From an uncultured Oscillospiraceae bacterium (GTDB lineage: Bacteria; Bacillota; Clostridia; Oscillospirales; Oscillospiraceae): a stretch of DNA of 64,000 nucleotides. The notes under the pieces were generated by a model, which did not search any database, was not told the DNA's origin, and saw nothing but the letters and a program-made list of their open reading frames with translations. The stretch lies in assembly GCA_947629915.1 (NCBI GenBank), contig CANRFN010000010.1, positions 5,786 to 69,785 on the forward strand, read 5' to 3'. The position numbers were made by a program, and so were the translations under genes. Each line of letters begins with the position of its first letter. The first letter of the stretch is position 1. This document shows positions 21,333 through 33,019 of this stretch, piece after piece.

Positions 21333-21374
21333 GGAAAAATCAAGGGCGTGTACCGACAGAGGTACACGCCCTTG
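21333..21374 (-). terminator. Rho-independent terminator closing the minus-strand island
   Basis: CAAGGGCGTGTACC-GACAGA-GGTACACGCCCTTG. On the minus strand it is followed by ATTTTTCC. Confidence 0.7.
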
Positions 21375-21413
21375 TGAGGAATTTGGCGGAAATGGTGCGC
21401 TTCAGGGGGGGAG

Positions 21414-23750
21414 CTACACCTTGGAGAGCGTTGTCTGCTGGACCCGCCGGATGCCGATGCCCACGAAGTCCACCATGACCCGTTTCGGCTCGAAGAACAG
21501 GATCTCTCCGGTGCCGTAGTTCTTGTGGCGCACGGTGTCCCCGATCTGGAGCACAATGGGGTCCGCCGGCGGGAGGGCGGTGCTGTCCTCACCCGGAGTC
21601 TGCCCAGGCGATGGATCTGCCCCGTCCTCGGCTGCGGGAGTGCCCGGCAACGCAACTTCCATACCCAATGTGGAAAACTTTGTGGAAGCTGTGGAAGTCT
21701 CTGTGGAACCTTCTGTGGAAGCGCATGTGGAAAACTCTGTGGAAGTTGTGGAAGGTTTTGTGGAAGTTGTGGAAGCCTTCGCAAAAACATGAATAGAACC
21801 GGGACTTTGTTGTGCAGCTGCACGATCTGCCACTTGCGTGCGCTCCTGTTCCAGCTCTGGCAGGGGTGTGCCGAGAAGCCGCTCTATGTAGACGGAGGGC
21901 TTGACCGGAATCTTGAAGAAGGCGTGGGGCACGTAGAAGGTGAGGCGCTCCTTGGCCCGGGTGGCGGCTACGTAGAAGATCCGCGCCTCCTCCTCCGGGT
22001 CCAGCAGGGAGTCTATGTCGTCTACGGGAAGGATGCCGGAGAGGGCGTCCAGCACGATGACGGCGTTGAACTCCAGGCCCTTGGCGGAGTGGATGGTGGT
22101 GAGGGTGACGTTGGCCTCCGCGGTGGCGGTGGTCTTGCTGCGGGCGTAGGTCTCCAGCGTGTCTGAGAAGCTCTGCAGGCTGCTGTACATGGAGGCGATG
22201 TGGGTGAGCACCTCGAAGTAGACGTTGGAGGAGATCACCGCGCCGGCGGCCTTCTCCCGCTGCAGCACCCGGGAGGGCACCAGATGCCGGATGAGCTCCA
22301 CCACCGCCACCGGGTCGCTGGACGAGGTGCAGTTCATCAGCGCACATAGCTGCTCCAGGGCCCGGCGCACATAGGGCTTGTCCCGGGACAGGTCCATGGC
22401 CACCTCCAGGACATTGAGGTCCTGGCCGGCGTCTGTGAGCACGTCCACGGTCTCCGAGAGGCGGGCGATAAAGGCGTTGGTGAAGTAGAGGCCGAAGAGC
22501 TGCTTGGTGTCCAGAAGGGCATCCAGATCCCAGGGACAGAGGGCCAGCCGCATGGCGCCCAGCACCCCGGCCACCGTGGGGTGGGAGAAGAAGGCCCGGT
22601 AGTTGTCCCGCCGGCGGAAGGGGATGTTCAGCCAGTCCAGCTCCATGGCCAGGGGCAGCAGGGTGAAGTTGTTGCGGGCCATGATGGCGAGGGTGGTGCC
22701 GGGCGTCTCCGCGGCGGCCTGTGCGGCGGCCACCGCATCCGCATAGAACGCCTTCATGGTCTGCTTCCGCTGGATCTCCACCGTGCCGGCGCCCTCCCGG
22801 GAGGGCGAGGCCTCTTTCCGATACCGCTCCCGGTTGATCTGGATGAACCGGTTGGCGCCCTCCACGATGGCGGGGAGGCTGCGGTAGTTGGTGTTCAGGT
22901 AGAAGACCTTGGCGTCCGGGTACGGATCGGCGAAGTGGAGCATGTAGTCCGGGTCCGCCCCCCGGAAGGAGTAGATGGACTGGTCGTCGTCGCCGGCCAC
23001 AAAGAGGCTGTCTGCGTCCTGTGCCAGCAGCTCCAGAATGCGGAACTGCAGCAGGGAGGTGTCCTGGGCCTCGTCCATGAAGATGTGGCGGTACCGGCTG
23101 CGGAAGTATCCCGCGGTATCGGCATCGGTCTGCAGGGTCTCGTAGGCGAAGAGCAGCTGGTCGTCAAAATCCATGATGTGGTTTTGCTGCTTGTATGATT
23201 CGTAGTCCTGGAAGAAGGCCTCGAAGGACAGCTTGGGGAGCTCCACTTTCAGCTCCGGTACATCCAGGGCCTCCCGCTCCTCCGCTGTGAACATCCGGTT
23301 CTTCACCAGGGTGAGCAGGGTGGAGAGCTGGCGCACCAGGTGGTCGCTGGGCCAGACGGAATACTTCCCGTGCAGAACCCGGCGGATGATCTTGCCGGGG
23401 TCTGCCTCCAGGGCGGGAAGCTGCGCTTTCTTTTTCATGCTGGCATCCCGGAGGATGGCCACGCAGAGGGAGTGGATGGTGGAGAACCGCGGGGCGCCGG
23501 TTGGCGTGGAGAAGATGCTCCGGTAGCGGGCCTCCATCTCATTGGCTGCGGCCTTGGTGTATGTGATGGCCAGGATGCACTCCCCGGGGATGCCGCAGGC
23601 CATGGTGAGATAGCCGATCCGCGCCAGGATGGTGGCCGTCTTTCCGCTGCCCGGCACCGCCACCAGCAAGGTCTCGCCGGAGGTCTGCTGGACGGCGGCG
23701 GCCTGCTGGTCGTTCAGCTGCAGGTGGTATCTGGTCTTAAATGTCGCAAT
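21414..23750 (-). CDS. SF1 UvrD/PcrA-type DNA helicase with ST-rich linker and C-terminal Tudor-like domain (start codon uncertain)
   Basis: Motifs I AVPGSGKT, Ia TYTKAAANEM, II FMDEAQDTS, III FVAGDDDQSIYSFRGA, V TIHSAKGLEFNAV and VI FYVAATRAKERL are all intact. C-terminal GDTVRHKNYGTGEIL..VDF resembles the PcrA/UvrD Tudor-like domain. The Q-motif region (LQLNDQQAAAVQQ) lies upstream of the track's TTG start (23669) in the same open frame, where there is no ATG/GTG/TTG. The end is set at the in-frame ATT 23750; CTG 23723 is the alternative. Confidence 0.8.
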   Translation of the reverse strand: MATFKTRYHLQLNDQQAAAVQQTSGETLLVAVPGSGKTATILARIGYLTMACGIPGECILAITYTKAAANEMEARYRSIFSTPTGAPRFSTIHSLCVAILRDASMKKKAQLPALEADPGKIIRRVLHGKYSVWPSDHLVRQLSTLLTLVKNRMFTAEEREALDVPELKVELPKLSFEAFFQDYESYKQQNHIMDFDDQLLFAYETLQTDADTAGYFRSRYRHIFMDEAQDTSLLQFRILELLAQDADSLFVAGDDDQSIYSFRGADPDYMLHFADPYPDAKVFYLNTNYRSLPAIVEGANRFIQINRERYRKEASPSREGAGTVEIQRKQTMKAFYADAVAAAQAAAETPGTTLAIMARNNFTLLPLAMELDWLNIPFRRRDNYRAFFSHPTVAGVLGAMRLALCPWDLDALLDTKQLFGLYFTNAFIARLSETVDVLTDAGQDLNVLEVAMDLSRDKPYVRRALEQLCALMNCTSSSDPVAVVELIRHLVPSRVLQREKAAGAVISSNVYFEVLTHIASMYSSLQSFSDTLETYARSKTTATAEANVTLTTIHSAKGLEFNAVIVLDALSGILPVDDIDSLLDPEEEARIFYVAATRAKERLTFYVPHAFFKIPVKPSVYIERLLGTPLPELEQERTQVADRAAAQQSPGSIHVFAKASTTSTKPSTTSTEFSTCASTEGSTETSTASTKFSTLGMEVALPGTPAAEDGADPSPGQTPGEDSTALPPADPIVLQIGDTVRHKNYGTGEILFFEPKRVMVDFVGIGIRRVQQTTLSKV
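21670..21776 (-). repeat. Ten copies of GTGGAA at 9- or 12-nt spacing (coding: ST-rich 3-4-residue periodic linker)
   Basis: GTGGAA at 21671, 21683, 21692, 21704, 21716, 21728, 21740, 21749, 21761 and 21770. On the coding strand this gives ASTTSTKPSTTSTEFSTCASTEGSTETSTASTKFST. Confidence 0.8.
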
Positions 23751-32940: not shown

Positions 32941-32990
32941 GATGATCTCCTCCGTCTGTGCGTGTGCCGCCTGAGCCGGCTCCAGGCAAG

Positions 32991-33019
32991 AGCATACCCG
33001 ATCTTGTTTGAAATTGCAA
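32991..33019 (-). promoter_or_regulatory. Candidate promoter of the family-A genes
   Basis: On the minus strand: TTGCAA (33019-33014), 17 nt, TATGCT (32996-32991), about 50 nt upstream of ATG 32940. Confidence 0.4.

Follow-up and report, generated by a model that had tools for sequence, protein, structure and literature searches.

A narrowly distributed gene cluster of an uncultured Oscillospiraceae bacterium with parallel arrays of degenerate P-loop proteins and small orphan proteins

The 64,000-nt stretch of the uncultured Oscillospiraceae contig CANRFN010000010.1 analysed here (the window) contains an 11.6-kb run of minus-strand genes, and its content raises the question of whether these genes make up a defence system of a new kind. 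In order of transcription, the block encodes three paralogous proteins of about 600 residues (A1, A2 and A3), a putative nuclease (N), three small paralogues (S1, S2 and S3), a decayed helix-turn-helix (HTH) protein and a superfamily 1 (SF1) helicase. An initial annotation, made from the sequence alone, had read this combination of nuclease, helicase, NTPase-like sensors and local paralogue expansion as the usual grammar of anti-phage and anti-plasmid loci. Our analysis points to a different division of the block. We tentatively favour, without calling it probable, a composite cluster that is inherited vertically in a narrow clade and in which A and S would be co-diversifying pairs within a module of conflict or effector-partner type; N would be a bystander.

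Distribution and evolution of the A and S families

The three A and three S proteins have the lengths first annotated for them (Table 1). A1, A2 and A3 all begin with MADF, and S1–S3 share 39–51% identity. Both families are rare. The clade of A to which the window copies belong comprised five clusters among the 5.8 billion searched and S comprised six, and this A clade was present in one of 185,579 species-representative genomes, a metagenome-assembled genome (MAG) of an uncultured Oscillospiraceae bacterium from rabbit gut. It had no match in phages or plasmids (searched by tblastn) or in JGI metagenome contigs (one scan for A and one for S), and PHROGs contained nothing for A, N or S. A phage or plasmid origin of A was rejected on the empty tblastn and PHROGs searches. 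The A clade and S are confined to about four closely related lineages, and all the contigs that carry them keep the order A-array, N, S-array, HTH gene, helicase.

Within these lineages, A falls into three orthogroups and S also into three, all of them older than the lineage split and all kept in the same order. The partner of A1 in L001, a long contig from a rabbit-gut MAG, is a 307-aa protein that consists of the C-domain only (72% identity), and A2 groups with A617 and A616 of L001 and with A614 of L020. L001 has undergone a parallel duplication, which affected both the A2 type (A616 and A617) and the S2 type (S180b and S182). The ratio of nonsynonymous to synonymous substitution rates (dN/dS) is 0.27–0.51 for A and S, and all copies of both families are under purifying selection. 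Between the window and L001, synonymous divergence (dS) reaches 0.6–1.1 in A and S and 0.5 in the helicase, as against 0.34 in N and 0.30 in the flanking kinase, so that the values of A and S are two to three times those of N and the kinase. This mosaic suggests either deep allelic lineages or exchange or recombination limited to A, S and the helicase.

Variant copies were also observed among the relatives. L001 encodes the C-domain-only A protein at positions 7201–8124 and, at 15546–16375, a frameshifted fifth S gene joined to what is left of an Rce1-like (CPBP) protease; L008-type strains carry a frameshifted S1 (L008 1186–1815).

Because A and S are rare in the same lineages, have matched orthogroups in matched order, were duplicated in parallel in L001 and share a raised dS, we favour the two families as a unit. 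The three ancient A and three S paralogues would then act as three cognate pairs, with each S binding and regulating, or being recognised by, its own A, and conflict-type selection would keep the set diverse, as in a defence or toxin-partner module. The A and S proteins would form the core of the cluster, A contributing a dead P-loop, a flexible linker and a domain of putative OspF/SpvC phospholyase fold, and S a helical and beta-barrel protein with no catalytic signature.

Domains of the A and S proteins

The N-domains of A1–A3 score 23.9–24.7 bits against the Pfam family PF09820 (AAA-ATPase_like), just under its cut-off of 26.1. Homology to this family is nevertheless likely, since more distant members of the A family exceed the cut-off (P0148 with 40.8 bits and P0163 with 54.9 bits). 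In agreement with their description as dead, the Walker motifs are degenerate in all eight members of the window clade, where Walker A reads GxG[AG]ST, with the lysine gone, and Walker B reads D-N. More distant full-length relatives retain GxGK[ST] and D[DE], and the Walker A lysine is kept in 21 of 36 full-length relatives. The P-loop of the window clade is predicted to be no longer able to bind or hydrolyse NTP, and the role of NTPase-like sensor first proposed for A does not fit proteins that lack an intact NTPase site.

The A family as a whole is small, and only 212 relatives were recovered when 1.84 billion representatives were searched exhaustively with its profile. The distant ones are solitary genes in varied contexts, and most are annotated as "AAA family ATPase". 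PADLOC analysis of ten wider A-family members gave only trivial P-loop matches (E of 8e-4 or weaker, 14–17 bits). One distant relative, P0280 on contig L018, has a degenerate P-loop, overlaps an upstream 522-aa open reading frame (ORF) without a Pfam match and has PIN/MazE toxin-antitoxin and nucleotidyltransferase genes in its neighbourhood; it is the sole A relative observed in a conflict-looking context.

To characterise the C-domain, we used an AlphaFold2 model of A3 built from 43 sequences, with a predicted local distance difference test score (pLDDT) of 91.7 and a predicted template modelling (TM) score of 0.80. Foldseek comparison of this model with the PDB matched the N-domain to AAA+ and RecA-like ATPases and the C-domain to structures of the phosphothreonine lyases OspF, SpvC and VirA (3i0u, 2z8p, 3bo6 and 4h43), the latter with probabilities of 0.9–0.96. 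K422 and R460 are invariant among the 43 A-family members and K454 is present in 41 of them; the pairing of K422, K454 and R460 with SpvC K104, K136 and R148, respectively, comes from motif alignment only, and hhalign aligned the IKxYxS stretch of A with the DKFHIS stretch of SpvC at a probability of only 0.2%.

Read by eye, the C-domain runs from the K422 strand through a helix, the K454 strand, an aromatic strand and a second helix to a Y-R-x-x-L-x-x-x-R-[DE] motif. We take this order of secondary structure elements (beta-alpha-beta-beta-alpha-beta) to agree with that of SpvC, by inspection and not from a computed alignment. On the same assumption, K422-x-Y424, in a strand of the form hK-x-Y-h-S, presumably corresponds to K104-x-H106 of SpvC (DK104-F-H106-IS), K454 to K136, and the Y-R-x-x-L-x-x-x-R-[DE] motif to Y212-R213...R220-D221. 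The position aligned to the general-acid histidine of this enzyme (H106) is occupied by a tyrosine in 40 of the 43 A-family members.

Based on this model, the architecture of A appears to be new, with the NTPase-effector theme of PF09820 retained and its nuclease replaced by a lyase-fold domain. We found no paper linking PF09820 with lyase domains, or phosphothreonine lyases with anti-phage defence. The survey also defines a family of about 200 representatives that combine a P-loop with an OspF-like domain and are at present annotated as no more than "AAA family ATPase". In the proposed module, the C-domain would act on a phosphorylated ligand or protein, or would only bind one.

The proposed partner is an orphan family. 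S had no match in Pfam, NCBIfam, PADLOC or PHROGs. The AlphaFold2 model of S2 (pLDDT 92.7) combines four helices with a small beta-barrel and a further helix at the C-terminus; its comparison with the PDB and with the viral structures of BFVD gave no significant match, only a low-probability resemblance to OB or S1-like barrels. The conserved residues of S look structural and not catalytic.

The lyase-like fold also raises the possibility of a cluster akin to those of ribosomally synthesised and post-translationally modified peptides (RiPPs). The N-terminal lyase domains of LanL and LanKC belong to the OspF/SpvC fold family, and the C-domain of A, similar in fold to OspF and SpvC, would in such a cluster dehydrate phosphoserine or phosphothreonine as they do. 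The block, however, has no kinase, cyclase, precursor peptide, protease or transporter gene, the C-domain matches no Lan, HopA1 or VRP3 profile, the general-acid histidine is a tyrosine family-wide and the window clade lacks two putative phosphate ligands. We consider a RiPP-like cluster highly improbable.

Several observations weigh against the interpretation of A and S as effector-partner pairs. The Foldseek matches of the C-domain were weak, with E = 0.019–0.03 and a target-normalised TM of 0.36–0.41, and were obtained with the full-length, two-domain query. The HopA1, VRP3 and Lan profiles of Pfam gave no match at E ≤ 1 for 20 C-domain sequences, and across these 20 A-family members no Pfam profile of any kind matched the C-domain even at this threshold. 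A profile search of PDB sequences with the C-domain returned nothing relevant, and hhalign against SpvC was not significant. With these searches empty, a sequence-level link of the C-domain to the HopA1, VRP3 and Lan families or to PDB entries was rejected. Of the HopA1/LanKC-N-like character originally assigned to the C-domain, the LanKC-N part is supported at the level of fold, through the OspF/SpvC match, and the HopA1 part is supported by no profile. In the window clade, moreover, the arginine equivalent to R213 is replaced by W497 and the histidine of a conserved Ser-His-Asn by Y510, both at putative phosphate-binding positions. These replacements, together with the tyrosine at the general-acid position, weaken the case for enzyme activity, and the C-domain may be a pseudo-enzyme or have an altered substrate.

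The distribution of the genes adds to these points. The copy numbers of the two families do not match exactly in L001, where four A-type genes, including the one reduced to the C-domain, face four intact S genes and one S pseudogene; this pseudogene is the S3-type copy, and the A3-type copy is intact. A distant S homologue (39–41% identity) lies beside the genes of ribosomal proteins L11 and L1, with no A gene within 4.5 kb. The neighbourhood of the block in the window is housekeeping, with no defence island or mobile element; no integrase, tRNA gene, boundary repeat or known defence gene was found around it, and the suggestion that the block might sit in a defence island was not borne out. 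L001 shares the SLH and kinase flanks of the window and represents the same chromosomal site. As all loci belong to one clade and one site, their shared order and co-occurrence may be mere descent. The co-occurrence of A, N, S and the helicase in other genomes, which had been put forward as a check on the system, is real in that three other lineages keep the same order, but it appears to reflect vertical descent in one narrow clade and is not independent evidence of linkage.

A rival explanation is that there is no system at all and that the block is a historical juxtaposition of unrelated clade-specific genes, in which A and S have separate roles (for example, in phospho-signalling or the binding of nucleic acids), N would be a core gene, and the helicase would be an accessory in decay. 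Every family has solitary members, namely, N, the distant A relatives and the distant S homologue, and a constant site with constant housekeeping flanks is what simple vertical inheritance would give. Pseudogenisation has affected the HTH gene, copies of S5 and S1 in relatives, and the start codon of the helicase. If mere juxtaposition were the answer, the locus would illustrate that no functional system is needed for a raw sequence to show the pattern of nuclease, helicase, NTPase and paralogues. Chance neighbours, however, would not be expected to show the traits that tie together the two rarest families of the block, from their shared lineages, three-orthogroup structure and order to the parallel duplication and raised dS, and we regard juxtaposition alone as rather unlikely.

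A genuine pairing of A and S would extend the NTPase-effector proteins, which dominate the conflict systems of bacteria, by a new effector chemistry, that of a phospholyase fold, and by a new orphan partner fold, and it would provide a compact three-pair set in which the specificity of co-evolving partners could be studied. A more specific and quite improbable version of this reading would make the block an unrecognised conflict module of three pairs, each consisting of an NTPase-derived scaffold with a phospholyase-fold domain and a small partner of orphan fold. The phospholyase-fold domain would irreversibly remove or capture phosphate on a phage or host target, the set would be kept under diversifying selection, and it would stand beside what is possibly the first widespread bacterial nuclease of Zalpha type.

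N, the HTH pseudogene and the helicase

The product of the N gene is a 254-aa protein starting with MPVAIE, as in all its homologues, and not the 354-aa translation of the maximal ORF. Its N-terminus is a winged helix-turn-helix (wHTH) and its catalytic-type residues E149, D163 and E176-x-K178 do not vary among 24 homologues. N is a predicted member of the PD-(D/E)xK superfamily, with the E...D...ExK motif on the core strands. The first description of N as a wHTH plus nuclease was correct in both elements; the likeness to NERD or DUF2075 proteins has no profile support, and no named Pfam family, NERD included, recognises N. In PADLOC, its nuclease core aligned weakly to residues 44–137 of the 657-aa PDC-S41 model (E = 6e-8).

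The wHTH of N provided a further lead. Its nine best sequence matches in the PDB are all Zalpha domains, which bind Z-DNA or Z-RNA (E = 0.004–0.14), hhalign against the Zalpha domain of ADAR1 gave E = 1e-3 at a probability of 21%, and N39, Y43, W53 and W60, corresponding to an Asn/Tyr/Trp signature, are invariant. N may be a widespread bacterial Zalpha-like nuclease, which we regard as an interesting lead. We found no paper linking Zalpha domains with bacterial defence.

N homologues form more than 2,682 clusters at a threshold of at least about 70% identity. On the long contigs L002–L007, each stands by itself, some within runs of small housekeeping genes, others immediately behind sbcCD or following yjbQ, and no A, S or UvrD gene was found near them in these contigs. 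N has a dN/dS of 0.12 and evolves at the genome background rate. Because this large family is found alone in unrelated contexts, N is not tied to the block; it appears to be a common, strongly conserved nuclease of Oscillospiraceae and a bystander between the A and S arrays. We flag it as a very common wHTH-nuclease of this family without an assigned role.

The two genes that follow the S array show signs of decay. What had been listed as a start-less HTH remnant and a separate 124-aa ORF proved to be one decayed gene of the HTH_28/HTH_23 type, with a 231-aa ancestor. The gene is intact in L008–L011; in the window copy the 5' end is gone, the start codon and some 33 codons are missing, and there is a frameshift.

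The helicase contains UvrD-helicase and UvrD_C domains and a weak PcrA_UvrD_tudor tail, and its best solved relatives are PcrA and UvrD. Its catalytic motifs are intact, as first stated, over the full set of SF1 motifs I–VI, but its ancestral start codon at 23754–23756 is not: L008 has ATG there, the window ACG and L001 CTG (near position 16440). The start was lost independently twice, in two of three lineages. The upstream Q-motif codons are still in frame and dN/dS is 0.32–0.39. The altered start codons may reflect non-canonical, low-level initiation or a very recent inactivation; an old, decaying pseudogene was not supported by the dN/dS values. The helicase core is joined to the Tudor-like tail by a Ser/Thr-rich linker (STTSTKPSTTSTEFST...), which is encoded by a tandem repeat with a period of 12/21 nt at 21668–21786.

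With regard to its identity, the helicase is not the housekeeping PcrA of the genome, an option that had been named as a possible refutation and was rejected at 240.8 bits against an equivalog cut-off of 911.2 (TIGR01073). Its best profile match is the phage helicase family phrog_1967 (354 bits), and GajB models also match (E = 3e-61). It shares 27–33% identity with phage helicases and is no closer to them than to PcrA, so the phage-helicase match says nothing about its origin.

These data bear directly on the reading from which the question arose, that the four families together make up a single new defence system with N and the helicase as a DNA-targeting effector, the A proteins as sensors and the S proteins as modulators. 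In its favour, no lineage with the A clade departs from the order A, N, S, (HTH), helicase, N lies just 39 nt upstream of S1 and a single strong terminator ends the run. N retains its PD-(D/E)xK residues, the helicase retains motifs I–VI and is under purifying selection, and both a phage helicase family, as the best match, and the GajB models recognise it. Set against this, N occurs thousands of times without the other genes of the block and, in contrast to A, S and the helicase, shows the background rate of evolution. The helicase start was lost in two of the three lineages, the HTH gene of the window is dead and the P-loop of A is unable to serve as an NTPase switch. There is also no PADLOC system match and no defence-island context. 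The grammar of nuclease plus SF1 helicase is not supported in view of the solitary occurrence of N and of distant A relatives, the dead P-loop of A, the damage to the helicase start and the HTH gene, and the housekeeping surroundings, and we judge a single four-family defence system unlikely. Under the A–S pairing that we favour, the HTH gene and the helicase would be accessories, dead and start-codon-less, respectively, in this genome.

Block layout, surroundings and known systems

The features of the block are listed in Table 1. The window has a G+C content of about 62%, and its real genes are recognised by a coding signature in which G+C at third codon positions (GC3, 0.8–0.9) far exceeds that at first positions (GC1). 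By this measure, the description of the block as minus-strand only is accurate, since all ORFs with a coding signature between 21414 and 32940 lie on that strand. The sole plus-strand exception, ORF 23741–24316, has GC3 close to GC1 and is antisense to a pseudogene.

Table 1. Coordinates of the block features in the window, in order of transcription
Feature	Position	Strand	Description
Promoter-like TTGCAA-17-TATGCT	32991..33019	minus	Upstream of A1; read in the sequence, below the consensus-scan threshold
A1	31117..32940	minus	607 aa; degenerate P-loop domain of PF09820 type, then a linker and a C-domain resembling OspF/SpvC
A2	29244..31082	minus	612 aa; paralogue of A1 and A3
A3	27397..29214	minus	605 aa; paralogue of A1 and A2; structure modelled
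Hairpin	27358..27385	minus	12-bp GC-rich stem, then UUU; directly after the A3 stop
TTGCGT-17-TACAAT element	27226..27254	minus	Likely N promoter, followed by a leader of ~190 nt
N	26273..27037	minus	254 aa; wHTH (Zalpha-like) and PD-(D/E)xK nuclease core
S1	25691..26233	minus	180 aa; orphan family
S2	25054..25602	minus	182 aa; orphan family; structure modelled
S3	24466..25020	minus	184 aa; orphan family
HTH pseudogene	23801..24401	minus	HTH_28/HTH_23, 231-aa ancestor; intact copy in relatives
Helicase	21414..23756	minus	UvrD/PcrA-like SF1, Ser/Thr-rich linker, Tudor-like tail; longest canonical ORF from TTG at 23669
Intrinsic terminator	21341..21374	minus	Closes the block; 14-bp stem, then T-run; -27.9 kcal/mol, z = -7.1

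The signals that frame the block and the hairpin behind A3 were all confirmed. The terminator is a strong one, and the promoter-like site upstream of A1 is present and kept at the same position in L001, where it reads TTGACT-17-TATTCT. The hairpin at the end of A3 has a perfect stem with a folding energy of -31 kcal/mol and a z of only -1.75; it is kept in four lineages, with one compensatory change from C:G to T:A in L001, and is the probable end of the A operon. The spacer between A3 and N (27038–27396) contains this hairpin, the TTGCGT-17-TACAAT element and the partly conserved leader, and its conservation across four lineages is close to the genome background rate and above that of the neighbouring A genes. 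The element was found by aligning the four lineages and was not reported by the consensus scan. Rfam gave no family match in the block, the spacer included. The conserved hairpin and element in the spacer, together with the position-conserved site upstream of A1, make two transcription units likely. The first would be an A1–A2–A3 operon with its own promoter and the hairpin at its end, and the second would run from the promoter before N through S1–S3 to the terminator after the helicase.

The flanks also agree with their first description. On one side lie a hybrid histidine kinase/response regulator and a solute-binding protein, and on the other a 1669-aa SLH surface protein followed by CsoR, a Cu-ATPase and TldD/PmbA. 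The wider neighbourhood also encodes UPRTase, TsaB, FtsW and galactose enzymes. Mobile-element boundaries were considered and rejected, as flanking repeats, tRNA and integrase were lacking. Elsewhere in the window, a flavin mononucleotide (FMN) riboswitch (RF00050, 106.7 bits) was identified at 1580–1698 on the plus strand, and G+C dips to 0.49 at 46000–48000, compared with about 0.63 elsewhere; the small ORFs 46441–46803 and 47398–47718 in this stretch have no Pfam match.

The block corresponds to no named system, as had been anticipated. Among nine block proteins, PADLOC returned only the generic GajB/UvrD matches of the helicase and the weak PDC-S41 match of N, and with no system match for the ten wider A-family members either, known defence systems were rejected. 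Comparison with individual systems nevertheless shows where the components resemble characterised or recurrent themes.

The helicase matches several GajB hidden Markov models of Gabija, with the best E-value given above, but these models are generic for UvrD proteins, and its scores against the PcrA model (241 bits) and phrog_1967 (354 bits) are higher than against GajB. PADLOC found no GajA (the OLD-type ATPase-TOPRIM protein) or other Gabija component among the nine block proteins. Like the single-chain nuclease-helicases of the Nhi, DUF2075 and PDC-S41 types, the block has a nuclease and an SF1 helicase, and N weakly matches PDC-S41; here, however, nuclease and helicase are encoded separately, at a distance of 2.5 kb that is occupied by four genes, and no Nhi or DUF2075 profile matches. 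The helicase shares its domain set with PcrA, UvrD and Rep and differs from them in its low equivalog score, the Ser/Thr-rich repeat linker, the mutated start and an evolution faster than that of the flanks.

For A, the closest parallel in organisation is the fusion of PF09820 with PDDEXK_9, a group of uncharacterised proteins common in gut Bacteroidales and Clostridia. A resembles these proteins in its probable P-loop family, size, two-domain layout and mostly solitary relatives. It differs in having a C-domain that lacks a Pfam model and is modelled as OspF-like and not as PD-(D/E)xK, and the window copies have additionally lost the lysine of Walker A and the acidic residue of Walker B and are triplicated in tandem. 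By its Foldseek matches, the C-domain may share the fold of the OspF/SpvC/VirA enzymes and the LanL/LanKC lyase domains, and placement by eye puts the Lys-x-aromatic motif, a second invariant lysine and the Y-R...R-[DE] motif at corresponding positions. Unlike OspF, SpvC and VirA, A is fused to a P-loop domain and has no secretion signal, no kinase partner and no profile similarity to them.

Taken as arrays, A and S can be compared with tandem loci of polymorphic toxin/immunity or effector/partner pairs. As in such loci, two families have expanded in parallel, with ancient copies, matched orthogroups and local divergence. They differ in that A and S are not interleaved, all A genes preceding all S genes, and in that A carries no secretion or delivery domain.

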